Source of the DNA: Myxococcaceae bacterium
Lineage (GTDB): Bacteria > Myxococcota > Myxococcia > Myxococcales > Myxococcaceae
Assembly: GCA_040400045.1 (NCBI GenBank)
Contig: JBBAQZ010000018.1
Span: 1 to 43,591, forward strand
DNA: 43,591 nucleotides
Direction of reading: 5' to 3'
Numbering within the stretch: position 1 is the stretch's first letter; each line of letters opens with the position of its first letter. A program made the translations under genes and the position numbers. The notes under the pieces are model-generated. The model searched no databases. It was not told where the DNA came from and worked only from the letters and a program-made list of their open reading frames with translations. This document shows positions 8,076 to 34,246 of this stretch, piece by piece.

Positions 8076-9926
8076 TTGCGCACAGAGCCGGCACCCGAGG
8101 GTTGCGGCGCAACTCTTGCGCCGTCCACCGGGACGACGCAACGGCCGACGGTCGGCGCGCGGCGTGCACTGCTGCCGAGGGTGCGCTCCATCGCCGACAT
8201 TCTCGACGCGCACTCGGGCGATTCCAAGCGGTTGGTGCAAATCCTCCTCGAGGTGCAGCGGGAGTCCGGCAACTGGTTGCCGGCAGGGGTTCTGACCGAG
8301 GTCGCCCGCGGCCTCGGCTTGCCGCGCGCGAAGGTCGAGGGCGTCGCCGGCTTCTACGCGTTCCTCCACCTGGTTCCGGTCGGCCGCTTCCGGGTGCTGG
8401 TGTCGGACAACATCACCGATCAATACGCGGGGAGCCGGGAGCTGTCGGGCGAGCTGTGTCGACGCCTGGGCGTGGAACGCGGGCACGTGCGCAGTGACGG
8501 TCGGGTCTCGGTCGACTTCACGTCGTGCACGGGACTGTGCGACCAGGCGCCAGCCCTGCTCGTCAACGGCGTCGCGGTGCCCCACGTCGTCGGAGCGCGC
8601 GTGGCCGAGGTGGTGCGGCTGATCGAAGCGAACACACCAGTCGATTCGTGGCCCGTGGACTTGCGGCACGTCGAGGACGGCGTTCGCCTGGAAGGGCCGG
8701 TGCTGCGCGCGGTGGTGGAGCCGGGTGCGGCGCTGGAGAAGATGCTGCGGTCGTCGCCCGCCGAGGTGCTTCGCGTCCTCACCGCGTCGAAGCTGCGCGG
8801 CCGGGGGGGCGCTGGCTTCCCGGTCGCCACCAAATGGGACACCTGCCGAGAGGCGCCGGGTGACAGCGTGGTGGTGTGCAACGCCGACGAAGGCGAGCCC
8901 GGCACGTTCAAGGACCGGTTGCTCCTCGCGCATCGGGCCGACCTCGTCCTCGAGGGCATGACCATCGCCGCGCGCTTCACCGGCGCGACCGCGGGGTTCA
9001 TCTACCTGCGCGGTGAGTACGCCTTCCTCGCGCCCCACCTCGAGGACGTCATCGCTCGCCGCCGGGCTGCGAAGCTTCTCGGCACCTCCATCGCGTCGGA
9101 GCGCGGCTTCGACTTCGACGTCGAGCTGCACCTCGGCGCCGGGGCCTACGTCTGCGGCGAAGAGACCGCGCTGCTCGAGTCGCTCGAAGGCAAACGCGGC
9201 GTGCCCCGGCATCGGCCTCCGTTCCCTGTCACCCACGGTTACCTCGGCAGGCCCACCATCGTGAACAACGTCGAGACGTACGCCGACGCCGCCGTGGTGT
9301 TCGCCAACGGGCTCGACGCGTGGCGCGCGCTGGGCACCGAGCAGTCGAGCGGCTCGAAGCTCCTCTCGGTCGCTGGCGACGTCGACCGGCCCGGCATCTA
9401 CGAGGTGCCGTGGGGCACGACGCTGCGTGACGTGCTGTCGCTCGCGGGCGCGCGCAACCCGAAGGCGGTGCAGGTCAGCGGGCCCTCGGGAGTGCTGGTG
9501 GGGCCGGAGCAGTTCGACCGCCGCCTCGCGTTCGAAGATCTGCCGTGCGCTGGCGCCATCGCCGTCTTCTCGGAAGCGCGCGACCTGCTCGAGGTCGTCG
9601 TGAACTACGCCCGCTTCTTCGCGCACGAGAGCTGCGGCTTCTGCACGCCGTGCCGCGTGGGCACGCACGTCGCCGTGAGGAGCCTCGAGAAGCTGCGCGA
9701 AGGTCTCGGCTCCCAGACCGAGCTGCAGGAATTGGCGACGCTGACCCGGCTGCTGCGTGACACGTCTCACTGTGGCCTCGGGAGCACCGCACCCAACGCG
9801 TGGCGGCACTACCTCGACACGTTCGGCCTCGACGTGACCCGCCGCTTGAGCGCGACGTTTCAGCCTGCGTTCGACGTCGGCGCGGCGCTCCAGGGCGCGC
9901 GAGCCAGCCGGGGAGGCTCGACATGA
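8076..9926 (+). CDS. hoxF: NAD-reducing [NiFe] hydrogenase diaphorase subunit HoxF, a fused NuoE-like (thioredoxin-fold 2Fe-2S) plus NuoF-like (FMN/NADH, 4Fe-4S) protein. The true start may be the GTG at 8181.
   Basis: GRGGAGFPVATKW (FMN site of 51-kDa subunit family), EGEPGTFKDR, an ESCGFCTPCR cysteine cluster, and an N-terminal NuoE-like region (CTGLCDQAPALLVNG). Only one ATG (8076) precedes the conserved region. The GTG at 8181 with an upstream GAGG is an alternative start. Confidence 0.85.
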   Translation: MRTEPAPEGCGATLAPSTGTTQRPTVGARRALLPRVRSIADILDAHSGDSKRLVQILLEVQRESGNWLPAGVLTEVARGLGLPRAKVEGVAGFYAFLHLVPVGRFRVLVSDNITDQYAGSRELSGELCRRLGVERGHVRSDGRVSVDFTSCTGLCDQAPALLVNGVAVPHVVGARVAEVVRLIEANTPVDSWPVDLRHVEDGVRLEGPVLRAVVEPGAALEKMLRSSPAEVLRVLTASKLRGRGGAGFPVATKWDTCREAPGDSVVVCNADEGEPGTFKDRLLLAHRADLVLEGMTIAARFTGATAGFIYLRGEYAFLAPHLEDVIARRRAAKLLGTSIASERGFDFDVELHLGAGAYVCGEETALLESLEGKRGVPRHRPPFPVTHGYLGRPTIVNNVETYADAAVVFANGLDAWRALGTEQSSGSKLLSVAGDVDRPGIYEVPWGTTLRDVLSLAGARNPKAVQVSGPSGVLVGPEQFDRRLAFEDLPCAGAIAVFSEARDLLEVVVNYARFFAHESCGFCTPCRVGTHVAVRSLEKLREGLGSQTELQELATLTRLLRDTSHCGLGSTAPNAWRHYLDTFGLDVTRRLSATFQPAFDVGAALQGARASRGGST

Positions 9927-12601: not shown

Positions 12602-13044
12602 AGTCACGCGTGCTCGTCTTCGGCTGGGGCAACCCCTCTCGTGGTGATGATGGGCTCGGGCCCGCGTTCGTCGGCGAGGCCAAGCGGAAGCCTGGCGTGG
12701 AGCTCCTCGTCGACTACCAGCTGCAACCGGAGCATGCCCTCGACCTCGTCGGCCGCGACGAGGTCCTCTTCGTCGACGCCAGCACCACCACTCCCGAGCC
12801 CTTCGAAGTGTTCGAGGTCAGCCCGGGGCCGGCGGTGACGTTCACCACCCACCACCTGTCGCCTGGCGCGCTGCTGGCCATCTTCGAGCGCATCACGGGA
12901 AGGCCCGCGCCGCGCTCGAGGGTTCTGGCGATTCGCGGCTGGTCGTTCGCGCTGGGGGAAGTGCTGAGCGAGCGGGGGCGGGCCAACCTCGACGCGGCCC
13001 TCGCGTGGTGGAACACGGAGCACCACGAGCGGCTCGCGCACTGA
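12598..13044 (+). CDS. hoxW: Hydrogenase maturation endopeptidase (HoxW / HyaD / HycI family).
   Basis: Internal start MKSRVLVFGWGNPSRGDDGLG (the GNxxxGDDGxG protease signature) overlaps the hoxH stop (ATGA). The Arg-rich 12496-12597 extension of the tracked ORF is rejected. Confidence 0.8.
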   Translation: MKSRVLVFGWGNPSRGDDGLGPAFVGEAKRKPGVELLVDYQLQPEHALDLVGRDEVLFVDASTTTPEPFEVFEVSPGPAVTFTTHHLSPGALLAIFERITGRPAPRSRVLAIRGWSFALGEVLSERGRANLDAALAWWNTEHHERLAH

Positions 13045-13054
13045 GGCGATGACG

Positions 13055-13876
13055 CTACCTGCGACGCGCGCGCACGAACGGCAGCGTCGCCACGAAGCAG
13101 AGCGCGAGCAGCAGCACGATGGCCGCGCCCGACGGCGCGTTCAGTCGCGTCGAGACCAGCACCCCGCCGACGCCGCTCACGGTCGCCACGATGACGCTGG
13201 CCCATGTCAGGCCCGCCACGCTGCGCGCCACGTTCCGCCCGGCAGCCGCGGGCACGAGCAGCATCGCCTCGACCATCAACGCGCCCAACACCTTCACCGA
13301 CGCCACGATGACGAGGGTGAGCAGGGTCACCAGGCCGTACTCGAGCGCGGCCGATGGGAGTCGCCGGGCCGCGGCGGTGCGGACGTCGAGCGCGTCGACG
13401 AGCAGCGCGTTGTGCCATCTCGCCAGGACGGCGAGGACCACGGCCAGCGTCACGCCCAGGACGGTGAGGTCGACCCGATTCACCGTGAGCACCGAGCCGA
13501 ACATCACCGCTTCGAGCTGGTGCACGTTGAAGCGCTTCGTCACGACGACGAGGAGCAGCACGCCGAGCCCGAGCGTGAAGGCGAGCAGCACGCCGACGAG
13601 CGTGTCGGACGGCAACGACGAGCGACGCCGAACGAAGACGAGCCCGACGCCACACAGCAGCGAGAAGCCGAGCACGCTCGCCCAGGGTGCGTCGACCGGC
13701 TCGCCCAGCAACACGCCGAGCGAGACGCCCGTGAGCACCGCCTGGCCGAGCGCCGCCGAGAAGAAGGCGAGCCGCCTCGTCATCACCAGCGGGGACAACA
13801 GCCCGAGCATCGGCGCGGCGAGCAGCACCGCCAGGAGCGCGCGCTGCACGAAGTCGAGCGAGAGGGCCTGCGTCAT
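13055..13876 (-). CDS. znuB: Metal (Zn/Mn) ABC transporter permease (ABC-3 / ZnuB-TroCD family).
   Basis: 273 aa with 7-8 hydrophobic helices and family-typical composition. It overlaps the upstream ATPase gene by 4 nt. Confidence 0.8.
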   Translation of the reverse strand: MTQALSLDFVQRALLAVLLAAPMLGLLSPLVMTRRLAFFSAALGQAVLTGVSLGVLLGEPVDAPWASVLGFSLLCGVGLVFVRRRSSLPSDTLVGVLLAFTLGLGVLLLVVVTKRFNVHQLEAVMFGSVLTVNRVDLTVLGVTLAVVLAVLARWHNALLVDALDVRTAAARRLPSAALEYGLVTLLTLVIVASVKVLGALMVEAMLLVPAAAGRNVARSVAGLTWASVIVATVSGVGGVLVSTRLNAPSGAAIVLLLALCFVATLPFVRARRR

Positions 13877-14487
13877 GCCGCGCTCCCGGACAGCGAGGCG
13901 GTGCGCGTGGCGAGCTGCCCGACCGCCTCGAGGTCATGCGAGATCCACAGGGTCGCGAGGCCCGTCGTTCGAGCGTCCCTCAGCGTCGTGAGCAGCCGGG
14001 CTCTGGCCGCGGCGTCGAGGCCGGCTTCGGGTTCGTCGAGGAGCAACAGCGAAGGCTTCGTCGCCAGCGCGTCGGCGAGCAGCACGCGGCGCAGCTCACC
14101 TCCCGACAACTCGGACAGTCGAGCGCCGAGGAGGGCCGAGCACCCTGTGAGCTCGAGGGCCTGCTCCACGGCCCGCCGCGTGGCACGAGGGACGCCCAGC
14201 CACGAGGGCCGTGAGGTGCGTGAGGCGGCGAGGAACTCGAGCACCGTGACGGGCGTGGTCGCGAGCCCTTCGAAGCGCTGCGGCACGATGGCGAGCGTCT
14301 GGTTCGTTGCCAGCTCCAGCGTGCCTGTGAATGGCACCAGCCCCAGCACGCAGTCGAGGAAGGTCGACTTCCCGCTGCCGTTGGGACCGACGAGCGCGAG
14401 CACCTCACCACGAGACAGCTCGAGCGACAGCGGCCGTAACCGGCCCGGCACCGTGACCGCGCCTGCCACGAGGAGCCGCTCACTCAT
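13873..14487 (-). CDS. znuC: Metal ABC transporter ATP-binding protein (ZnuC-like), 204 aa.
   Basis: Walker A GPNGSGKST, ABC signature LSGGELRRV, Walker B LLLLDEPEAGLD, and an H-loop HDLEAV. The start ATG at 14485-14487 on the reverse strand gives MSERLLVAGAVTVPG. The longer 456-aa ORF is an N-terminal shadow extension. Confidence 0.8.
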   Translation of the reverse strand: MSERLLVAGAVTVPGRLRPLSLELSRGEVLALVGPNGSGKSTFLDCVLGLVPFTGTLELATNQTLAIVPQRFEGLATTPVTVLEFLAASRTSRPSWLGVPRATRRAVEQALELTGCSALLGARLSELSGGELRRVLLADALATKPSLLLLDEPEAGLDAAARARLLTTLRDARTTGLATLWISHDLEAVGQLATRTASLSGSAA

Positions 14488-15317
14488 CGCGTCATCACCT
14501 GGACGATGGCGTCGAGGTTTCGCTGCAGCTCTGCTTCGAAGCGCGTTGGCGTGAAGTCGCCCGTCGCGACGTGGCTCACCACCACCACGCGCGCCCCGGC
14601 CTCTTCGAGCACCTTCGCCATCGCTGGTGGAAACGTCTCTTCCGAGAACACGACGCGCACCTGTCTGGCCTTCAGGCGCTGCACGACGTCGCCGAGCTCC
14701 GAGGCCGAGGGGAGCAGTCCATGCGCGGGCTCGACGACGCCGGCCAGCTCGAGGCCGAGCTCCTGGAGCAGGTAGGCGTAGCCGTCGTGCACCGTGACGA
14801 CGCGTCGCTGCTTGACGGTCGAGAGCGCTGACACGGTGGCCGCCCGCATCGCCCGCAGCCGCCTCGCGAAGGCCGCGGCGTTTCGCTCGAGCGTCGGTCT
14901 CCACTCGGGTCGCAGCTGCGCCAGGGCTCTCGCCAACGTGTATGACTGCAGCGCCCCGTTCCCCATCGACAGGAAGGTGTGCGAGTTGGGTGCGGTGCCG
15001 CCGTGAGTCAGCAACAGCGGCGTGCCTTCGTTCATCCTGATTCGGGTCAGCTTCTCGTTGCCGGCGGCGCGCACCATCTCGTCGAGGAAGGCGTCGTGGC
15101 CCAGGCCATTCTCCACCAGCACGTCGAGCGTCTTCAGCGTGGCGACGTCTTGTGGCCGCGGCTGGTAGCTCCCGATGTCGACGTCGCCTGGCACCACCGC
15201 GACCAGCTCGACCGGCAGCCCCTCGGTCACCCGCGCCGCCCACGAGTAATAGGGGTGGAGCGTCACGCCCAGCTTCAGCGGCGCCGCGGCCACGATGAGG
15301 CAGAGGAGCGCGCTCAT
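14484..15317 (-). CDS. znuA: Metal ABC transporter substrate-binding protein (ZnuA/TroA family), 277 aa with a signal peptide.
   Basis: Start MSALLCLIVAAAPLKLG (ATG at 15315-15317, reverse strand) is followed by a TroA-like fold (VVTVHDGYAYLLQELGLE, VRVVFSEETFPPAMAKVLEEAGARVV). It overlaps znuC by 4 nt. Confidence 0.75.
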   Translation of the reverse strand: MSALLCLIVAAAPLKLGVTLHPYYSWAARVTEGLPVELVAVVPGDVDIGSYQPRPQDVATLKTLDVLVENGLGHDAFLDEMVRAAGNEKLTRIRMNEGTPLLLTHGGTAPNSHTFLSMGNGALQSYTLARALAQLRPEWRPTLERNAAAFARRLRAMRAATVSALSTVKQRRVVTVHDGYAYLLQELGLELAGVVEPAHGLLPSASELGDVVQRLKARQVRVVFSEETFPPAMAKVLEEAGARVVVVSHVATGDFTPTRFEAELQRNLDAIVQVMTR

Positions 15318-19524: not shown

Positions 19525-19983
19525 TTGGCAAGGCGCTCGCACAGCAGTCCCGGCGAAGGGGAACTCACCGTGCGCGCTCTGCTCCTCACACTCGTCGTCG
19601 TGCTCTCGGCTGCATGCACGGGGGAGTACTCCGCGACGCCCGAGGAGCTCGCCCGCTACGAGTTCTTCGCCGAAGTGAAGGTCAACCCGACGGCGCCGGT
19701 CGCCGGCCGCATGGTGAACCTGAACCTCGAGCTGTCGAGCCGATCCAACCAGCTGGTGGTCGTCGACGTGATTCTCCGCGCGGTGCGCGCTGACGGCAGC
19801 GTGATGAACGAGCAGGTGTGGCCGCGGGTGACGTTCCACCCTGAAGAAGTGTGGAACCTCACGCAGGGTTTCCTGTCGCGCACCGACGAGCGCGGCACCT
19901 TCGACGTCGTCATCGAGACCCGCGAGTCGGCGTCGGGCAAGGTGCGCTGGACCGGGCCCGGCCCGACCTACGCGTTCCGTTAA
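19525..19983 (+). CDS. Hypothetical lipoprotein (about 135 aa mature).
   Basis: Lipobox LLLTLVVVLSAAC near the N-terminus, then a beta-rich sequence. The stop abuts the convergent acyl-CoA ligase stop. Confidence 0.45.
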   Translation: MARRSHSSPGEGELTVRALLLTLVVVLSAACTGEYSATPEELARYEFFAEVKVNPTAPVAGRMVNLNLELSSRSNQLVVVDVILRAVRADGSVMNEQVWPRVTFHPEEVWNLTQGFLSRTDERGTFDVVIETRESASGKVRWTGPGPTYAFR

Positions 19984-21602
19984 GGCAGCGCGTAGTCCTT
20001 GAACCGATCGCGCAGCTGACGCTTCAGCACCTTCCCGGTCGGCCCCAGCGGCAGCGCGTCGACGAACTCGATCGCGTCGGGCAGCCACCACTTCACCAGC
20101 TTCGTCTCGAGAAACGCCTGGAGCTCGGCCTTCGAGACGTCCTTGTCCTTGTGTTTCACCACGACGAGGAGCGGGCGTTCGACCCAGCGGGGGTGGGGAA
20201 CGCCGACGGCCGCGGCTTGCGCGATGGCGGGGTGCAGGGTGGCGGCGTGCTCGACGTCGATGGAGCTGATCCACTCTCCGCCCGACTTGATGACGTCTTT
20301 GCTGCGGTCGGTGATCTGCATGTACCCCTCGCCGTCGATGGTGGCGATGTCACCGGTGGCGAACCAGTCTCCGTCGTGGTGCGAGCGGTCGTCGGAGTGG
20401 AAGTACGCGCTCGCCACCCAGCCGCCCTTCGCCTGCAGGTGGCCTGACGTCTTGCCGTCGTGAGGCACGATCTTCCCGTCGTCATCGACGAGGCGCAGAT
20501 CGACGCCGAAGATGGGCCGGCCCTGCTTGAGCTGAATGGCGAGGCGCTGCTCCTTCGAGAGGGCCTGGTGCGTGGGGAGCAGCACGCACGCCGTGCCGAG
20601 CGGCGACAGCTCGGTCATGCCCCAGGCGTGCAGCACCCGCGCGCCGTGCTCTTCCTGGAAGGCGGTGATCATCGAGGGCGGGCAGGCCGAGCCGCCGATG
20701 GTGACCTTGGTGAGCGTCGCCATTCTGACCTGCTTGGTCTTCGCGGCGGCCAGCAGCCCGAGCCACACGGTCGGAACGCCGAGCGCGCTGGTCACACGTT
20801 CGGCCTGAATGAGCTCGAGCAGGCTCACGCCGTCGAGCGCGGGCCCCGGCAGCACCAGCTTCGAGCCCACCATCGCCGCGGCGTAGGGCACGCCCCATGC
20901 GTTGACGTGGAACATCGGCACGACGGGAAGGGTGACGTCCTGCGCCGAGATGGCGAGCGCGTCGGCCATGCAGATGGCGTAGCTGTGCAGCACGGTGCTG
21001 CGGTGCGAGTAGAGGACGCCCTTGGGCATCCCGACCGTGCCCGACGTGTAGCAGAGCGAGCTGGCCGTGTTCTCGTCGAGGACTGGCCACGAGAAGGTCG
21101 TCGGCTGGCCCGGGAGCAGCGACTCGTACGCGCGCAGGCCTGTGATGCCGGTGTCTTTCGGCAGGTGCGCTTCGTCGGTCAGCGCGACGAACTGCTTGAT
21201 GGGCGTGGGCACCGACGCGAGGTGCTTCGCGAGCGGCGCGAAGGTCGTGTCGAAGCACAGCATCACGTCGCCTGCGTCGTTGGCGATGTACGCGAGCTGG
21301 TCGGGGGGCAGCCGCGGGTTGATCGTATGGAGCACCGCGCCCATGCCCGACACTGCGAAGTAGAGCTCGAGGTGGCGTTGGGTGTTCCACGCGAGGGTGG
21401 CCACGACGTCACCGGGCTTGATGCCTGCGGCCGTCAACGCGTTCGCGAGCTGGCGGACCCGATCGGCGAGGCCACTCCAGGTGGTGCGAACGATCGGCCC
21501 TTCGACGGTGCGGGTGACGATCTCGACCGAGCGGTGAAAGCGCGCGGCGAACTCGAGCTGCGACGAGATGAGCAGGGGCTGCGTCATCATGAGGCCGTTC
21601 AT
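19980..21602 (-). CDS. fadD: Medium/long-chain fatty-acid--CoA ligase (AMP-dependent synthetase/ligase, FadD-like), 540 aa counted from the internal Met.
   Basis: AMP-binding motif YTSGTVGMPKGV, HVNAWG, TELSP, FATGDIATIDGEGYMQITDRSKDVIKSGGEWISSIDVE, and the C-terminal LPLGPTGKVLKRQLR (A10 Lys). Internal ATG at 21600-21602 (reverse strand) has an AGGAG 7 nt upstream. It lies in frame with the upstream NUDIX domain with no intervening stop. Confidence 0.8.
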   Translation of the reverse strand: MNGLMMTQPLLISSQLEFAARFHRSVEIVTRTVEGPIVRTTWSGLADRVRQLANALTAAGIKPGDVVATLAWNTQRHLELYFAVSGMGAVLHTINPRLPPDQLAYIANDAGDVMLCFDTTFAPLAKHLASVPTPIKQFVALTDEAHLPKDTGITGLRAYESLLPGQPTTFSWPVLDENTASSLCYTSGTVGMPKGVLYSHRSTVLHSYAICMADALAISAQDVTLPVVPMFHVNAWGVPYAAAMVGSKLVLPGPALDGVSLLELIQAERVTSALGVPTVWLGLLAAAKTKQVRMATLTKVTIGGSACPPSMITAFQEEHGARVLHAWGMTELSPLGTACVLLPTHQALSKEQRLAIQLKQGRPIFGVDLRLVDDDGKIVPHDGKTSGHLQAKGGWVASAYFHSDDRSHHDGDWFATGDIATIDGEGYMQITDRSKDVIKSGGEWISSIDVEHAATLHPAIAQAAAVGVPHPRWVERPLLVVVKHKDKDVSKAELQAFLETKLVKWWLPDAIEFVDALPLGPTGKVLKRQLRDRFKDYALP

Positions 21603-22298
21603 CGGGGCTCCTGGGCGAAAGGAACCCCCGATGTACCCCGGGCCCTCGACCGCGGGGGACGGTTTGAGGTGACGCGCCGCACCAGCGGCAGGAGGCGCTC
21701 GACGATGGTCGCGCCTGGCGCGGATTCCGCCCCATCGAGCGCTTCTCGGAAACCCGGTCGCCGTTCGCGCCTTCTCGAGCATTCGACGGAGCGGTGCCTC
21801 ATCAGCGCGAGCCAGCGCGTCGTCCCAGGTGAGCCACTGCGCGCCATGCGATTCGGCCGGGTCGTGCTTCAACGCGTCGGGGGCCTCGGCGACGACGAGG
21901 TAACGCACGTCGAGGTGACGGTGCTCCGGGTCGCCTCTTCGCGCGGGAATGACGTGAACGTCGACGTCGAGTGGACGTGGCGCGTGGGGGTGGAGTGCGA
22001 CGTGAAGCCCCGTCTCTTCACGCGCCTCTCGCAGCGCCGTCGCTTCCATCGAGCCGCCATCGGCCGCGTCTGCGTGCCCGCCCGGTTGGAGCCATCGGTG
22101 GAGCTTCGCGTGGAGCAGGAGACAGACCCGCGCGCCGTCGGGGGTCACGACGACAGCGCTGCCGGTGAAGTGGGCGGGCCACTGGGTGCGCGAGAACGGC
22201 TCGGCGAGGGTGGACGCGAAGTCACGCATCGCTGAGAGATCGAGGCGCTCCTTGTCGTCGAGTGGCCGGTGCGCTGCGAGCAGGTCGATCAGGGTCAT
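21603..22298 (-). CDS. NUDIX hydrolase domain. This is the N-terminal 232 codons of the continuous 772-aa ORF 19980..22298, and it is either a separate gene or an N-terminal fusion to the acyl-CoA ligase.
   Basis: NUDIX-fold blocks VCLLLHAKLHRWLQPGGHADAADGGSMEATALREAREETGLHV (Nudix-box-like REAREETGL), DVDVHVIPA, and HLDVRYLVV. No stop codon separates it from the ligase frame. The linker is Arg/Pro-rich. Confidence 0.45.
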
Positions 22299-23530
22299 GG
22301 GGTGAGCGGGAGCGGAACGACGCGCAGCTCTCGCGCGGTCGTGCCCAGGAGGAAGAGGAAGTCGCGGCTCGCGCCCACCAGGTCTGACGGGAGCAGGTCG
22401 AACGACGTGCCGTCGCGGCGCTGCGTGAGGAGCACGATGCGCCGTGGGCCAGCGTCTGGGGAAGTGAGGAGGATCGGCGGGAACCCCCCAGCCAGCTCAA
22501 TCACCTCGGTCTGCGCGGGCTGGAGTCCGGGCGGCAAGGGCACCGTGAGCGCGACGCCCGCGTCAAGCACGACGGGGCGTTTGACGAGACTGATGGACGT
22601 GAACTCGCCAAAGGGGGCGAGGGGCGTCGTTCCCCTGTCGACCAACCAGAGGTACGACGAATCGAGCCCGAGGAAGCGGGCGTCATCTCCGTTCACCACG
22701 CAGCGGCTCTGATCTCCTGGTCGTGCCGTGACTTCGCAGATCGACCCCGGCGTGACGCTGAGCACCCGAGGGCCCTCCGACCACCGCGCGCCCGACGAGA
22801 GCCCGTGGTCCCGCCGTTCCAAAGTCCCGGCGTCGAAGTCGTAGCGCGAAGGGCCGACGATCGCGCTGAGCTCGTCGGCCGAGCTGCCAGCCCCGGCCAG
22901 GAGCAGGGTCGCCGTCGCGGTCAGCACCAGGCCGGCGTCAAGCTGGTCCTCATACCTGCGGATGTCGGAGCGCCCGATCGCCCAGGCGACGTTGCCCACG
23001 GTGAGCAGCCGCTCGACGCCAGTCAGCGTAACCGACTGACCATCGCGCGATGCCAGGAAGCCACCGTCTCGAGTCGCGCAGAACTGGGTGCCCGTGGTGG
23101 TCCGCGCCGGGCGAACACAGGGCTCGGGAAACCGCAGCAGGAAGCCCGCGTCGCCTTGACGATCGGTGCCGACGAAGACCGGCAGCTGGACGACGCCAAG
23201 GGTCGGCTCGACGAACACCTGCAGAAAGTGAGTCCCTGCAGCGAGTGCCGGAAGGGCGACCTCGAGCTCGACCGTCCCCCCGACCTGGATCAGCCGCGTC
23301 ACCTCGACCGGCACCCGCGTCCCCGACGGAGTGGTCAGCAGTGACTGTGCGCTCAGCGCACCCTCGGGGAGGGGGCACGCGGTGCCCGTCAGGACGAACG
23401 AGAACGCCTGCGGCACACCTGCGCTCATGAGGAGCGCGGCAGGGAGAGGGCGAGGCGCGGCGACCAGGGTGCAGTCCCCGGTCGAAGGAGGACACGAGGT
23501 CAGCAGCAGGGCGAGCCAGAGGTGCTTCAC
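22295..23530 (-). CDS. Hypothetical lipoprotein (about 411 aa) with a GTG start. Only the C-terminal two-thirds of the tracked 642-aa ORF is taken as real.
   Basis: GTG at 23528-23530 (reverse strand) gives VKHLWLALLLTSCPP, a lipoprotein signal with a lipobox Cys. A coherent sequence follows. Upstream of it the frame is Arg/Gly junk. Its stop overlaps the NUDIX start by 4 nt. Confidence 0.45.
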   Translation of the reverse strand: MKHLWLALLLTSCPPSTGDCTLVAAPRPLPAALLMSAGVPQAFSFVLTGTACPLPEGALSAQSLLTTPSGTRVPVEVTRLIQVGGTVELEVALPALAAGTHFLQVFVEPTLGVVQLPVFVGTDRQGDAGFLLRFPEPCVRPARTTTGTQFCATRDGGFLASRDGQSVTLTGVERLLTVGNVAWAIGRSDIRRYEDQLDAGLVLTATATLLLAGAGSSADELSAIVGPSRYDFDAGTLERRDHGLSSGARWSEGPRVLSVTPGSICEVTARPGDQSRCVVNGDDARFLGLDSSYLWLVDRGTTPLAPFGEFTSISLVKRPVVLDAGVALTVPLPPGLQPAQTEVIELAGGFPPILLTSPDAGPRRIVLLTQRRDGTSFDLLPSDLVGASRDFLFLLGTTARELRVVPLPLTP

Positions 23531-23758
23531 GAGGCGTTCATAGACACGCGGTGAGGCGCTGCGTGAGCGTGCAGAGAAGGAAGGTGACTTGACCGGTCGT
23601 TCGGACACATGGGAGCTCAGTCTCAGACCTTCCCCGCACCCCGGCGGGCCCCAACGCCCCCTCGACGCCCTTCCCGTTTTCAGCTGTGTTCGACTCGTTC
23701 TTTTCTTGTTCTTCGCAGCACAAGCCCCTGTGGGAGCCGAACGCCTGCGGCGTGTGAC

Positions 23759-24229
23759 ATGGGGTCCAGTGCAATGACCGCTGAAGACTGCGACGCCTGT
23801 GCTGCACGAGGCGCGCTGACCTTCGACGCCGACACCGTGAGCGATCCTCCGAAGGGCTCGCCCATGTTGTTCAGGTTTCATCAGGATGTGCGCCGGGAGT
23901 TCAGTGGCTCCCGGAGTGTCGAGGAGCAGCGCGTCGCCTGTCCTGATTGCGGGCGGCTGTACCTGCGAACGCTGACCAACGCGACCCGGTGCTCGTGCGG
24001 CCAGTCCTTCGTCGTCGTCTTCACGGAGCGCGTGGACTTCCGCGACGGGTCCGACACGCAGGTCGAGCTCGCGGTCGCACTCTGGCCCGCAGAGCGCGAA
24101 GGCCTCGAGGGCGCGTTCCAACCACTCACGCTCACGAAGCTCGTCCGTGGCAGGGCCTTTCTCGTGAAGAGCACTGGAGACGCGCCGCGGTGGGTCGCCT
24201 CGGGCTTCTCCATCGGCCCGCACGATTGA
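23759..24229 (+). CDS. Small Cys-rich (zinc-ribbon-like) hypothetical protein. The start could be the ATG at 23759 or at 23774.
   Basis: CDAC ... CPDCG ... CSCG spacing suggests a Zn ribbon. The 23609-23758 extension of the tracked ORF is Pro/Arg junk. Confidence 0.4.
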   Translation: MGSSAMTAEDCDACAARGALTFDADTVSDPPKGSPMLFRFHQDVRREFSGSRSVEEQRVACPDCGRLYLRTLTNATRCSCGQSFVVVFTERVDFRDGSDTQVELAVALWPAEREGLEGAFQPLTLTKLVRGRAFLVKSTGDAPRWVASGFSIGPHD

Positions 24230-28620: not shown

Positions 28621-31113
28621 TCACTGCGCGGGAATGCGGAACGTGCCTTCCTTGCAGCCGACCTGCACCTCGTTGATGAGGTTGGGCGCGGTGGGGTCGA
28701 ACACGAAGCTCTGCACCGCGAACTCCCGGCGCGCGCCGGGAATGAGCGAGGCGAACGCCATGCGGCGCTGGCCGGGGGCGTAGAGGGTGCAGGCGTTCCA
28801 GCTGAACTTCGAGGTGTTCTGCAGGAAGACGGCCCAGACCGGGTCGGTCTGCAACTTGAGCAGTCCGGTCATCGAACCCTTCCCAGCAGCCGGTGCGCCC
28901 GTCGCGGCCGCCGCGGGAGCGCTCCCCGTTGCGTCGAGTGACGCGAAGCGCGCGCCCGTCGCCTTCGCGGCGTCGGGATCGAGCAGCACGCGACCCAGCT
29001 TGCCCTGCACCTCCATCACGGTCGCCGTGCCGAGCTTCAGGCGCTTTCCGTCGTTCTGCGTCGGGCCGACGATGACGAGCTCCTGGCCGGCGACGAGGCC
29101 TTCAGGCTTGCCGGCGCGCACGTACAGCTTGTCGCCGTCGGCGAAGAGCTCGACGGCCTTCTTCACGTCGAGGCTGTTGCTGGGCGCCGCGACCTCTTTC
29201 ACGTCACCGATGGCGACGAAGCGGTCTCCCGACGCGCCCGTGGCCTCGGCGTCGAGCGCGAGCCGCGACATCTTCGGGAACACCTCCATCACGGTGCCGG
29301 TGCCAACGCGCGTGCGCTTTCCATCGGCGCCCGGGCCGCTCACGATGACGAGGGTCTGGCCCACGACGAGACCGTCCGGAGTGCCCGCGCGGGCATACGT
29401 CTTGTTCGCGTCGGTGAAGAGCTCGACGGCCCGCTTCACCTCGATGCTCACCGGGCCACCCGGCTTCGAAGGCGCGGTGACCTTCACGTCGCCCAGCGCA
29501 GCGAAGCGGGCTCCCTGGGCTTGAGCCGCGGCCGCGTCGAGCGCCACGCGAGCCATCTTCGGGAAGAGCTCCATCACGGTGCCGCTGCCGACCTGCTGCC
29601 GCTTCCCGTCACTCCCGGGCGCGCCGATGATGATCAGCGTGCCGCCGACGACGAGGCCGTCTCCCTGGCCCGCGCGCACGTACGTCTTGTCACCGTCGAC
29701 GAAGAGCTCGGCGGTCTTCTTCGCCTCGACGACGTCTCCGGTCGCCGCCTGCACCGTGTCGGTGATGGGCGGAACGATGACGGGCGTCGGGTCCTTCGGT
29801 GGCTCGGGCGGGCGCTCGTCAGGCGGTGGCGTCGGACCGCCTTTCACCACCTCGACGGGCTTCAGCGGCGCGACCGCCACCGGCGTCTGCTCGATCGTCA
29901 ACGTGCTGCTGCGCATGGAGGAGATGGCGTACCCGCCGCCGATGAGCACCAGCGCAGCGGCGAGGACGGCGCCGATGATGACGGGCGCTTTCGACGGTGG
30001 AAGGGCTGCGGCCTGGAGTTGCGCGGTGGTCATGGGGGCTCCCTGGTCTGGTGAAGGTGCTGCGGCAGGCGAGGTGCGCTCGACGGCGCGGTGCGTGGCG
30101 GTCGGCTTGACGAGGGTCGGCTCGATGGGGTCCGAGACCGGCAGGCTCCGAAGGGTGGTCACCCGCGTGAGCAGCGCCTGCGTCGACTGGTACTCCGACG
30201 CGCAGAACTGCTTCACGAAGTCACCGATCTGCACCTTCGACGGCATGCCCGACAGCTTGAGCAGCTCGTCGAGCAACGCGCGGGCGAAGTCGTCGGTGGT
30301 GGGGAAGCGATGGTCGGGGTCCGCCGACAGCGCCTTGAGCACCACGGTCTCGAGCGAAGCGGGCACTTCGGGGCGCAGCGGCGAGATCGGCTTGAGCGCG
30401 GGTGTCGCCATCGCCACCACCATCTCGGTGAGCGTCCCGCGCGGCACGAAGGGGCGGTTGGCGAGCAACTCCCACAGGCAGATGCCCAGCGCGTATTGAT
30501 CGGCCCGGTGGTCGACGTTCTCGCCGCGCGCCTGCTCCGGCGCCATGTAGCCGAGCTTGCCCATCACTGACGGGGCGCCCGTCATCTTGCTGCGCGCTTC
30601 CGACTTGGCGATGCCGAAGTCGATGACCTTCACCTCGCCCTCGTACGACACCATGAGGTTCTGAGGGCTGACGTCGCGGTGCACGATGTTCATCGGCGAG
30701 CCGTCGACGGCAGTCTTGCGGTGCGCGGAGCCGAGGCCTTCGGCGGCCTGCTGCACCAGGTAGACGCTGACCGGCACCGGCAGCACCTGGTTCGAGTCAC
30801 GCACGTGCTGATGGAGCCGCGCGAGATCGACGCCCGCCACGTACTCGAGCGCGAGGTAGAGCGTGCCGCCCTCGTCACCCATGTCGAACACCTGGGCGAT
30901 GTTCGAGTGCTGTAGCTGCGTCAGCACCCGGCCTTCATGGAGGAACCGCGAGACGAACGACTGGTCCTTCGCGATGGCGGGCAGCACCATCTTCACGATG
31001 CAGAGCTTCTCGAAGCCTCCGGTGCCGGTGAGGCGCGCGAGCCAGACCGAGCCCATGCCGCCTTCACCGAGCTGTTCGAGGAGCTCGTATCGTCCCAACT
31101 TCTGAAGCGCCAT
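28621..31113 (-). CDS. Ser/Thr protein kinase (830 aa) with an N-terminal kinase domain, Pro-rich linker, single TM helix, three tandem ~90-aa extracytoplasmic repeats and a C-terminal Cys-containing domain.
   Basis: GEGGMGSVWLA, CIVKMV (VAIK-like Lys), HRDVSPQNLMV, DFGIA, and GYMAPE. TM segment VIIGAVLAAALVLIGGGYAI. The repeats are described separately. Confidence 0.85.
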   Translation of the reverse strand: MALQKLGRYELLEQLGEGGMGSVWLARLTGTGGFEKLCIVKMVLPAIAKDQSFVSRFLHEGRVLTQLQHSNIAQVFDMGDEGGTLYLALEYVAGVDLARLHQHVRDSNQVLPVPVSVYLVQQAAEGLGSAHRKTAVDGSPMNIVHRDVSPQNLMVSYEGEVKVIDFGIAKSEARSKMTGAPSVMGKLGYMAPEQARGENVDHRADQYALGICLWELLANRPFVPRGTLTEMVVAMATPALKPISPLRPEVPASLETVVLKALSADPDHRFPTTDDFARALLDELLKLSGMPSKVQIGDFVKQFCASEYQSTQALLTRVTTLRSLPVSDPIEPTLVKPTATHRAVERTSPAAAPSPDQGAPMTTAQLQAAALPPSKAPVIIGAVLAAALVLIGGGYAISSMRSSTLTIEQTPVAVAPLKPVEVVKGGPTPPPDERPPEPPKDPTPVIVPPITDTVQAATGDVVEAKKTAELFVDGDKTYVRAGQGDGLVVGGTLIIIGAPGSDGKRQQVGSGTVMELFPKMARVALDAAAAQAQGARFAALGDVKVTAPSKPGGPVSIEVKRAVELFTDANKTYARAGTPDGLVVGQTLVIVSGPGADGKRTRVGTGTVMEVFPKMSRLALDAEATGASGDRFVAIGDVKEVAAPSNSLDVKKAVELFADGDKLYVRAGKPEGLVAGQELVIVGPTQNDGKRLKLGTATVMEVQGKLGRVLLDPDAAKATGARFASLDATGSAPAAAATGAPAAGKGSMTGLLKLQTDPVWAVFLQNTSKFSWNACTLYAPGQRRMAFASLIPGARREFAVQSFVFDPTAPNLINEVQVGCKEGTFRIPAQ
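28924..29712 (-). repeat. Three tandem in-frame ~270-nt (~90-aa) repeats inside the kinase gene (consensus AVELFxDGDKTYVRAG.PDGLVVGQTLVIVG.PG.DGKR..VGTGTVMEVFPKM.RLALDA.A.GA.GARFAAxGDVK).
   Basis: The same motif series (ELF-DG-K-Y-RAG ... GLV-G-L-I-G ... DGKR ... GT-TVME ... ARFA) recurs three times in the translated sequence. It is also visible in the + strand ORF 28787..29524 as triplicated text. Confidence 0.7.
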
Positions 31114-31131
31114 GTGGTGGTCCTCAGTCTT

Positions 31132-32643
31132 CTACGCCTTCGACGATTCACCACCTGCTTTCTGCACCCGGCGCTTCACACCCTGGGTCACGGCCCACGC
31201 GGCGAGGCCGATGCCGAAGATGACGCTGACCCAGATGGTGAGTGAGGGGACGGCGTAGAGGCTCCCGCTCCCCAGGGGCAGCGAGAGGCCTGCCAGGCCC
31301 GCCAGCACGGCATCGAACGCGGGGTCGCTCGCGTGACCGAGCTTCACCAGCATCAGGCCAGACGACGTGAAGCCGACGTAGAGCATCCAAGCGGAGGCGC
31401 AGAGGTAGAGGAACGCAGCCGCGAGGCCCAGCGCGCTCGGTCTCGGCGTTCCCTCGAGCGGCTTCACGGCGAGGCGGAAGAGGCCGGCGACGGTGAGCGC
31501 CGCGAAGAAGACCAGAATGGCGCCGACGTTCGCGAGCACCGTGCGGAGCTCGTGGGTGAAGAGCACCAGGAGCGAGAGGGCTCCCTGGAGCAGCACCGCC
31601 GCGGTCGGCGCCTGGCCCTCCGTCCCCGCGAGGAACGAGGGCAGCACGCCGTCCTTCGCCATCACCGCGTACACCCGCGGGCCGACGAGCGTCATGGCGC
31701 TGATGGCCGAGATGAAGAGCACCAGGGTCACTGCGCTCATCACCTTCGCCGCGCCCGCACCGAGCAACTTCGCCATCACGGCCTGGCCGAGCGTCACGGT
31801 GTCGAACTGGGCGGCGCCCGAGGTGAACGCATCGTACCGGAACACCACCGTGCCCTGCTCAGGGGTGAGGTTGGCGACGAAGATGAAGTTCACCACCAGG
31901 TACAGCAGCGCCACGACGAAGCAGCCGATCATCATCGCGCGCGGCACGGTGCGCTCGGGATCCTCGAAGTCGTCAGCCGCGTACACCGCCGCGTTCCAGC
32001 CCGAGTAGGCGAACGCGATGTAGAAGAGGCTCGACGCGAACCCGCTGAAGCTCTCTCCATCAAACGACGGCGGCGTCCACGTCGGCCACGCAGCCGAGCC
32101 CGCGAACAGGCCCACCAGCACGAAGCCCATCAGCAGCGCGACCTTCACCGCGACGAGCCCGTTCTGCACCCGCGCCGACAGGTGCAGCCCGAGCGCGTGG
32201 AGCAGGGTGAGGAGGATGATGAGGCCAGCTCCGAAGAGGCGCGGGTCGAGCACGGGGAAGAGGACCCGCGCGAACGCTCCGGCCGCGAGCGCGTCGAGAG
32301 CGATGGGCGCCGAGAAGCCGACGAGCAGCGAGCCCCAACCTGCGACGTACCCGAGCGCCGGGTGTAGCAGCGTACCGACGTACCGGTACTCGCCGCCGCC
32401 AGAGGGAAGGAAGCGGGCGATCTCTGCGTACGCGCGCGCTCCGGCGAGCGCGAGGACTCCACCCACCACCCAGGCGAGCAGAATGGTGCCGGGCTTCATC
32501 GACTGCGCCATGAAGCCGGTGGAGAGGAAGACGCCGGCGCCGACCATGTTGGCGATGACGAGGCCGACGCCCGACCACAGCCCGAAGGAACGAGTGGTGC
32601 TCACGGAGCCGCGGGGTGTACCGCAGCACCGCGCTGAATACAT
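31132..32643 (-). CDS. APC-superfamily amino-acid permease, about 503 aa with 12 predicted TM segments.
   Basis: Internal ATG at 32641-32643 (reverse strand, MYSARCCGTP, GAGG upstream) precedes the first TM GVGLVIANMVGAGVFLSTGF, an APC-family signature region. The 88-codon N-terminal extension of the tracked ORF is non-protein-like. It ends 18 nt before the kinase start. Confidence 0.8.
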   Translation of the reverse strand: MYSARCCGTPRGSVSTTRSFGLWSGVGLVIANMVGAGVFLSTGFMAQSMKPGTILLAWVVGGVLALAGARAYAEIARFLPSGGGEYRYVGTLLHPALGYVAGWGSLLVGFSAPIALDALAAGAFARVLFPVLDPRLFGAGLIILLTLLHALGLHLSARVQNGLVAVKVALLMGFVLVGLFAGSAAWPTWTPPSFDGESFSGFASSLFYIAFAYSGWNAAVYAADDFEDPERTVPRAMMIGCFVVALLYLVVNFIFVANLTPEQGTVVFRYDAFTSGAAQFDTVTLGQAVMAKLLGAGAAKVMSAVTLVLFISAISAMTLVGPRVYAVMAKDGVLPSFLAGTEGQAPTAAVLLQGALSLLVLFTHELRTVLANVGAILVFFAALTVAGLFRLAVKPLEGTPRPSALGLAAAFLYLCASAWMLYVGFTSSGLMLVKLGHASDPAFDAVLAGLAGLSLPLGSGSLYAVPSLTIWVSVIFGIGLAAWAVTQGVKRRVQKAGGESSKA

Positions 32644-32686
32644 GTGTCCTCGCCTCGTCCGTGCCGTTCGGAGATTCTGCGCGAAC

Positions 32687-34246
32687 ATGCACACCAGGCT
32701 CGCAGTCCTCACGGTGACCGTCTTCGCGTCGTTCGGGTGCTCCGCAGCGTTTCTGGCGGCGAAGCGTGGGCAGGATGCGCTCGACCGCGGCGACGTCGAA
32801 GCGGCGATGGCGGAGTACTGGTCGGCCTGCCGGCAGAGCGACGACAAGGACTGGTGCGAGCGCGCTGACCGGCTGTACCTCGACTTGAAGGTGACGCTGC
32901 TCACCGAGGCGACGCCGGTGTGCGGTCAACGCGGCCAGGAGCGGAGGTGCTTCGACATTCTCAACCGTGCGCGACGCATCAAGGATGACCCACAGCTCGC
33001 CGCGCTCGCTGACGCGTCGGGAGGGACGTGGCTCGAGTCGTGCCGCGCGTCACCGGTGAATACCACCATCGACGCCGTCGTTCGCGTGCGCTGCATCAGC
33101 ACGGTGAAGGCCGACGTGAACACGCCGGCCTACGAGCAACAGCTGACCCGGGAGCGACAGCAGCTCGCGCAGTTCGTCGGCGCGCAGGCGAAGGTCGCGT
33201 CGGACAGCGGGCTGAAGGCGAACGCGGTCGGTCTGGGTTCGCTCGCGCGGTGCTTCTCGAAGGACGCCGTGTTGCCCGTGCCGCTCGACGTGCTCAATCG
33301 CGAGTTGCTGGTGAGGCTGCCGGTGTCTGCGGCGCTCGCGAGCGATGGGTTGGTCTCGGCGTCAGGCGCCTGCGCGGACCTGCAGCGGCTCTCGAAGGGC
33401 CGGCTGCGGTGTGTCGCCACCGGCGCCGAGGTCGGCGTTCGCGTGGGCCTCTCTCGCAGTCAGATGAGCCATGAGTGGAACGACACGCTCCACGATGTCA
33501 CCTACGTCGCGCGCCGGGAGCGCTACGACAACCCCGAGTGGTACCGGCTCGAAGGCCGCCGCGTCGAGTGTGAACGAAACGCGCGGACCGCGAGGCAAAA
33601 CGCGAAGCTGGCGGCCGATGACTGCTCGCTCGCGCAGAGCGACCTGAGCCGCGCGCGGTATTGTCAGAACTGCGAGGCCAGGCGAAACGAAGAGGCGTTC
33701 TGCCGCCGCAAGTCGACGATGGAGGACCTGCGTCGTGACGCGGAGCGCGAGCTCGACGACGTGGAGTCGCACCAGCGCCGAACCGACCGGGAGCTCATCA
33801 GGGAGATCACCGACGTCTACCGGTACACCCGCCGCACGCACACGTGGCAGCAGAACTTCCGTGTCGTCATCGCTGCCGCTGGGTCGCAGCTCCGCTCGCG
33901 TGATTTCACGGTGACGCTCACGCGCACGGGCGTCGACCAACCCGACTTCCAGCCGGCTGGCGTGAGTGGCTCGACGGCGCGCGTGCCGAGTCAGGACTCG
34001 CTGGACGCTGACGGTTTCGAGGAACTCGAAGAGGCGCTCGGAGCCTGGGTGAACGAGTCGCTGGGCACGCTGGCGCAGGCGCGGGAGGCGACCTGTTCGC
34101 CGGAGCAGGGCCGCCCGCAGCAGCTCGAGTGCAGGGTCGGCGCAGCGTTCCTGCGTGGCGAGGAGCCGGGCCGGTTCTACGTCGCCGAGTTGGGGAGAGA
34201 TGCAGACCGCGTGGCGAAGTACCCCGCAGCGCCGTGTTCGCCGTGA
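32687..34246 (+). CDS. Hypothetical lipoprotein, about 519 aa, rich in Arg/Glu/Cys.
   Basis: Internal ATG at 32687 gives MHTRLAVLTVTVFASFGC (lipobox). The upstream part of the tracked ORF is antisense to the permease. No domain recognised. Confidence 0.55.
   Translation: MHTRLAVLTVTVFASFGCSAAFLAAKRGQDALDRGDVEAAMAEYWSACRQSDDKDWCERADRLYLDLKVTLLTEATPVCGQRGQERRCFDILNRARRIKDDPQLAALADASGGTWLESCRASPVNTTIDAVVRVRCISTVKADVNTPAYEQQLTRERQQLAQFVGAQAKVASDSGLKANAVGLGSLARCFSKDAVLPVPLDVLNRELLVRLPVSAALASDGLVSASGACADLQRLSKGRLRCVATGAEVGVRVGLSRSQMSHEWNDTLHDVTYVARRERYDNPEWYRLEGRRVECERNARTARQNAKLAADDCSLAQSDLSRARYCQNCEARRNEEAFCRRKSTMEDLRRDAERELDDVESHQRRTDRELIREITDVYRYTRRTHTWQQNFRVVIAAAGSQLRSRDFTVTLTRTGVDQPDFQPAGVSGSTARVPSQDSLDADGFEELEEALGAWVNESLGTLAQAREATCSPEQGRPQQLECRVGAAFLRGEEPGRFYVAELGRDADRVAKYPAAPCSP

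Follow-up and report, generated by a model that had tools for sequence, protein, structure and literature searches.

A comparison of Treponema pallidum subspecies described one gene fusion that arose by a frameshift mutation as well as one protein elongation caused by a read-through mutation of a stop codon (PMC3265458). For the combination of a NUDIX domain with an acyl-CoA ligase or synthetase our literature search found no fusion described. Here we analyzed a 43,591-nt stretch of DNA from a Myxococcaceae bacterium (contig JBBAQZ010000018.1, hereafter the window), in which one open reading frame (ORF) on the minus strand joins a NUDIX hydrolase to an acyl-CoA ligase. An earlier note on this DNA had proposed either a genuine NUDIX-ligase fusion or a NUDIX stop codon lost by sequence error or read-through. 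Judging from the sequence comparisons, we consider the fusion to be a very recent, strain-level product of a 331-nt deletion and not an evolved or conserved bifunctional enzyme, and we give this reading a probability of roughly 0.85.

As the earlier note had stated, translation of the window yields a single ORF of 772 aa without internal stops at 19980..22298 (minus strand, stop codon included), and the identical protein was called on a second assembly, the Logan contig L003. The Pfam domains of this protein are NUDIX at residues 48-174, AMP-binding at 262-633 and AMP-binding_C at 682-756. Three segments can be distinguished on the minus strand. Residues 1-188 (21735..22298) equal the stand-alone NUDIX protein of conspecific strains, residues 189-232 (21603..21734) form a linker, and residues 233-772 (19980..21602) represent the ligase gene proper with 540 codons and its stop. 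The ligase gene has kept its own Shine-Dalgarno sequence AGGAG at 21608..21612, located 5 nt before its ATG (21602-21600). The general outline of the earlier note was therefore sound for the NUDIX fold, the linker and the internal ligase start preceded by AGGAG, but the measures differ: the NUDIX part ends at residue 188, as the conspecific stand-alone proteins show, and not at 180, the linker comprises 44 aa instead of about 50, and the spacing between AGGAG and ATG is 5 nt instead of 7 nt.

The conspecific loci decide between a conserved fusion and a recent one. A stand-alone NUDIX protein of 188 aa (P0124), which differs from the NUDIX part of the window in one residue and ends with ...GFPRSAR before a stop codon, is the product of three loci in three assemblies, namely a 385-kb JGI contig (L086), GCA_964202185.1 (L087) and a further JGI assembly (L088), with a DNA identity of 98-99.8% to the window. 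Each of these loci carries the 188-aa NUDIX gene closed by TGA, then a spacer of 458-460 nt and then a 540-aa ligase gene, and the product P0126 (540 aa) again differs from the ligase part of the window in one residue. Comparison of orthologous loci, which the earlier note had recommended, thus revealed separate genes in three conspecific loci and a stop in the place where the linker starts in the window. With this stop at codon 189 and a separate ligase gene in conspecifics, the genuine fusion in the sense of a conserved one had to be given up. The normal state of the species is a pair of adjacent, co-oriented genes about 460 nt apart, the DNA between them consisting of the decayed remnant of a nudC gene, which was transcribed divergently, and the leader of the ligase gene.

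In alignments and megablast comparisons, the window and L003 lack 331 nt of the spacer that correspond to positions 6567-6897 of L086. The left homology ends at window position 21733, equivalent to L086 6566 and the G of the TGA stop, and the right homology begins at the same window position, equivalent to L086 6897, leaving a microhomology of 1 nt. At the junction (21733/21732) TG is joined to G, so that the TGA stop of the relatives reads TGG in the window and encodes Trp189 (21732..21734, minus strand); 129 nt, or 43 codons, follow in register, and the ATG of the ligase comes next in the same frame. Close relatives hence keep the parental genes as separate neighbours in the same orientation, and in the window the stop is deleted and the frames are in register, as a fusion by deletion implies. 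The suspected loss of the NUDIX stop was correct in effect, but neither a point error nor read-through caused it, as the 331-nt deletion took the final base of the TGA. A mere substitution in the stop codon is ruled out by the 331 nt missing in the alignment. A single-base frameshift near the end of the NUDIX gene was rejected as well: all three frames are open across the leader and neither alternative restores the expected stop, since one of them ends in the ATGA with which the ligase gene starts and the second continues to 21409.

The linker (W189-P232) consists of the junction codon and 129 nt of the retained 5' untranslated leader of the ligase gene. Its sequence equals the non-coding leader of L087 exactly and differs from that of L086 and L088 by 1 nt in the alignment; in view of the exact match to L087 the fusion is very recent. 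The linker, whose translation would yield peptides such as HLKPSPAVEGPGYIGGSFR, is dominated by Gly, Ala, Arg and Pro (68%), and the G+C fractions at codon positions 1, 2 and 3 (.73/.75/.67) are atypical compared to those of the NUDIX part (.80/.49/.81) and the ligase (.66/.46/.92). We conclude from the alignments and the composition that the linker is unaltered non-coding leader DNA. That it is open is unremarkable, because the chance of 43 codons without a stop is about 0.56 at the base composition of the linker and the 129-nt leader is open in all three frames. In the homologous leaders of three relatives (L007, L094 and L095) an in-frame TGA is present. At the G+C content of the window, about 69%, an open frame over an intergenic leader is no evidence of a designed fusion.

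Parts of this leader are conserved across species. The AGGAG before the ligase ATG is invariant among all relatives aligned, and two blocks at 21683-21660 and 21641-21628 (minus strand) are kept between species with about 70-90% DNA identity. Their patterns are GGTGCG.CGCGTCA.CTCAAA.CG and CCGG.GTACATCG, and both are now translated within the linker. The first block reads GGTGCGGCGCGTCACCTCAAACCG in the window (21660..21683), where it occurs once, and may be a regulatory element; together the blocks may have served as operator or promoter of a divergent nudC-ligase pair. A terminator scan returned one weak terminator-like hairpin only, which is shared with relatives and is uninformative.

Beyond the species, no fused relative was found. 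When the NUDIX part plus linker was used as query, none of the best 120 homologues was fused; all of them are stand-alone proteins of 179-196 aa that terminate 3-20 residues past a conserved EKAR. A genome scan with the full 772-aa query, restricted to one genome per species, gave 80 loci, and all 80 match the ligase part alone, none with a NUDIX gene upstream. The cluster at 90% identity comprises separate NUDIX proteins (185-188 aa) and separate ligases (540 aa), and among the 15 cluster members listed the only fused protein is the sequence of the window itself, recovered from the Logan contig. Besides, the stand-alone 540-aa ligases P0122, P0125, P0126 and P0128 all begin with MNGLMMTQ or MHGLMMNQ. 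A maintained fusion is thus contradicted in two respects, as no orthologue found has the same architecture and the linker lacks the coding signature of the genome.

Both parts of the ORF were compared with family models. The NUDIX part scored 47.3 bits with the Pfam NUDIX model (PF00293; gathering cut-off 21.1) over residues 48-174, which places it in the NUDIX superfamily. The strict NUDIX box expression GX5EX7REUXEEXGU is unmatched; REAREETGL alone is present at residues 90-98 with a different upstream spacing, and all homologues of the family share this variant box. Among solved structures, 3FCM (E = 9e-9), an uncharacterised NUDIX protein from structural genomics, is the nearest. The ligase part scored 237.5 bits with PF00501 and 60.1 bits with PF13193 and is thereby an acyl-CoA ligase of the ANL superfamily. 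Within it, the ligase falls into the subfamily PRK06187 (NF004837) with 551.7 bits against a cut-off of 476 and narrowly misses the equivalog model of the 3-(methylthio)propionyl-CoA ligase DmdB (PRK07008, NF005426) with 803.2 bits against 822. The closest PDB entry is the DmdB structure 6IHK (659 bits, full length), and the long-chain fatty acyl-CoA synthetase (LC-FACS) of Thermus (1ULT) also aligns over the full length with 471 bits. The NCBIfam ligase profiles span residues 231-772 and profile positions 3-541 of 545, which bears out the claim that the FadD-like ligase is complete.

The earlier note had also suggested a mechanistic coupling, in which a NUDIX enzyme of the CoA pyrophosphatase type acts on the acyl-CoAs made by the ligase. 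The NUDIX part reached 15.5 bits with the CoA pyrophosphatase model NF007980, for which the cut-off is 134, and a regular-expression search upstream of the NUDIX box found no match to the NuCoA motif LLTxR[SA]x3Rx3Gx3FPGG. By these sequence tests the NUDIX part is no recognisable CoA pyrophosphatase. The adjacency of the two genes is also recent, and the suggested coupling is not supported.

The lost DNA gives an indication of how the region developed. The missing stretch codes on its opposite strand for residues 198-268 of a NAD+ diphosphatase of the NudC type, NUDIX box included, and this nudC remnant is interrupted in L086 by an in-frame stop and in L087 by a frameshift. An intact nudC, divergent from a ligase gene whose product is 97% identical, is present in L007; its product has the Zn_ribbon_NUD and NUDIX-like domains and scored 267 bits with NF001299 (cut-off 158). 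L089-L091 encode a NUDIX protein with an identity of about 95%, and after its gene comes the 3' end of nudC in convergent orientation; nudC is also detectable in L093-L095. In the latter three loci, the nudC homologue lies at about 4040-4840 (minus strand) and appeared as two overlapping tblastn pieces near the C-terminus with no gene called; a frameshift may be present here as well and would then point to more than one decay of nudC within the group. Moreover, a related species carries the NUDIX gene (14545-15102) and the ligase gene (84500-86122) on the same strand of contig JAUYSO010000017.1 but 69 kb apart, and the neighbours upstream of the NUDIX gene and downstream of the ligase match those in the species of the window. 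Read most economically, these arrangements suggest three steps. A rearrangement or a deletion of about 69 kb would have brought nudC and the ligase gene beside the NUDIX gene, nudC would then have been eroded to a remnant of about 330 nt, and in the strain of the window a final 331-nt deletion would have taken away what was left of it along with one stop-codon base. The adjacency of the two genes gives no functional link, as it is of recent date and a different gene stood between them.

If the sequence is right, a ribosome starting at the NUDIX ATG would translate the 44 codons derived from the leader, continue into the ligase and yield a chimera of about 84 kDa. By the genetic code this product would be obligatory, because there is no stop before 19980. 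Independent initiation of the ligase is plausible as well, because the AGGAG, the ATG and the conserved leader blocks were retained, and a free ligase of 59 kDa is probably still made by internal initiation.

The same deletion could have a different outcome, namely loss of function. The chimera would then misfold or be degraded, the strain would in effect be a NUDIX mutant, and only the internally initiated ligase would work. This outcome fits a decaying region in which nudC was eroded stepwise by deletions, and also a linker of low complexity, made largely of Gly, Ala, Arg and Pro, that was never under selection; the ligase would be spared by its own Shine-Dalgarno sequence and ATG. Nevertheless, both domains are intact to the residue. 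Long flexible linkers normally permit two domains to fold independently, and this general rule also speaks for a chimera that folds. We therefore regard a non-functional chimera as a possible but rather unlikely consequence of the deletion.

A second alternative holds that the true arrangement is undeleted and that the gap of 331 nt stems from assembly or chimeric reads. The spacer and the stop are indeed present at every other conspecific locus recovered, and further length differences between assemblies occur nearby, with 103 nt at 23703-23805 and a 136-nt tandem array in L086 only. However, the two assemblies with the deletion are base-identical across the junction: L003 (Logan, run SRR11430613), for which 2 samples are reported, matches window positions 23635-19070 at 100% identity over 4566 nt with the junction included, and it runs unbranched for about 4.5 kb through the junction. 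Direct repeats of at least 10 nt flanking the breakpoints were not found. A repeat-mediated collapse of the assembly was discarded on this ground together with the microhomology of a single nucleotide, because a graph assembler had no path skipping the 331 nt when the breakpoints lack a repeat. An artefact is accordingly improbable in our view.

Some points nevertheless weigh against a real, recent deletion that leaves the ligase independently expressed. The deletion allele rests on two assemblies, which are perhaps of the same or related samples. It is the conservation of the leader only that would suggest an independent transcription of the ligase, and a simple scan found no sigma-70-like promoter, an outcome that is uninformative either way. 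The JGI metagenome collection gave no match to the junction, a result that is uninformative because the undeleted allele was not found there either.

The reading favoured by the earlier note, a selected bifunctional enzyme whose NUDIX domain would use the acyl-CoA or acyl-AMP made by the ligase as substrate, can point to two complete domains in frame and to a C-terminal NUDIX tail that varies in length among homologues and might tolerate an extension, but it fails on the missing fused orthologue, the stop in conspecifics, the unaltered non-coding leader in the linker, the far too low CoA pyrophosphatase score without a NuCoA motif, the distance of 69 kb in a related species and the nudC gene that once stood between the genes here, and its chance is very low. 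A further reading would be that the deletion is real and the 84-kDa chimera stable and active, which would mean that a bifunctional NUDIX-acyl-CoA ligase is just arising within a population; this is very unlikely. If it were true, the linker would have been recruited unchanged from a 5' untranslated region and the allele might be under positive selection.

Upstream of the NUDIX gene the window contains a gene of 377 aa (22295..23428, minus strand) whose own TGA overlaps the NUDIX ATG at 22298 in an ATGA. An equally long gene was called in L086 and L088, and a Pfam search with its product gave no significant match. In related genomes three tandem paralogues of 373-427 aa without a Pfam family lie between a sigma-54 activator gene and the NUDIX gene (L001 1209-5004, L084 6006-10004, window 22295-23428), and the last one shares an ATGA with the NUDIX start. 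Still farther upstream, past the 377-aa gene, the 103 nt at 23703-23805 are absent from L086 and L088, and about 111 nt at L086 4629-4739 are likewise absent from the window, so that the intergenic DNA here seems prone to insertions or deletions of 100-330 nt. Just past the ligase stop, L086 contains a 136-nt unit repeated 3.3 times in tandem (8683-9127, TRF score 708). In the window this unit is present once, at about 19888-19998, and forms no array, which makes it a strain-level copy-number variant; the repeat overlaps the 3' end of a convergent ORF of 137/152 aa. We also looked downstream for the convergent 181-aa gene of L001 and L084, of which an 18-codon trace was the only sign, in L089 and L090 and not in the window. 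Elsewhere in the window, positive AT-skew spikes at 13001-14000 and 31001-33000 coincide with minus-strand genes of membrane proteins, namely permease-like ORFs of 273 aa (13055-13876) and 590 aa (31132-32904), an ordinary compositional effect.

The locus matters for annotation. Pipelines will call a 772-aa NUDIX/AMP-binding protein, as the gene call on the Logan contig did, and such an architecture could spread to databases and into function inferences of the Rosetta-stone style. It also offers a clean and precisely datable origin of a fusion, in which a 69-kb gap was closed, nudC was eroded and a 331-nt deletion clipped the stop. If the allele is real, the strain could be a natural test of the tolerance for raw fusions.

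Compared to described enzymes, the ligase part resembles DmdB (6IHK/6IJB; NF005426) and the Thermus LC-FACS (1ULT) over its full length. Since it remains just under the NF005426 cut-off of 822, a substrate specificity of the DmdB type is a candidate only, and the known DmdB and LC-FACS enzymes have no N-terminal NUDIX domain, in contrast to the 772-aa ORF. With CoA pyrophosphatases of the NudL/Nudt7/PCD1 type the NUDIX part shares the general fold and the REUXEEXGU half of the NUDIX box, but it lacks their NuCoA motif and lies far below the cut-off of NF007980. As an event, the locus resembles the fusions of the Treponema type (PMC3265458): adjacent, co-oriented genes became one ORF when a small mutation removed the stop, while sister strains keep them separate. 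Unlike those cases, the mutation here is a 331-nt deletion that cut exactly one base off the stop codon, the 5' leader of the downstream gene forms the linker, and a pseudogene remnant was deleted in the process. Fusion of adjacent genes by loss of a stop is familiar in comparisons of close genomes, and the present case is unusual only in how completely its steps can be reconstructed.

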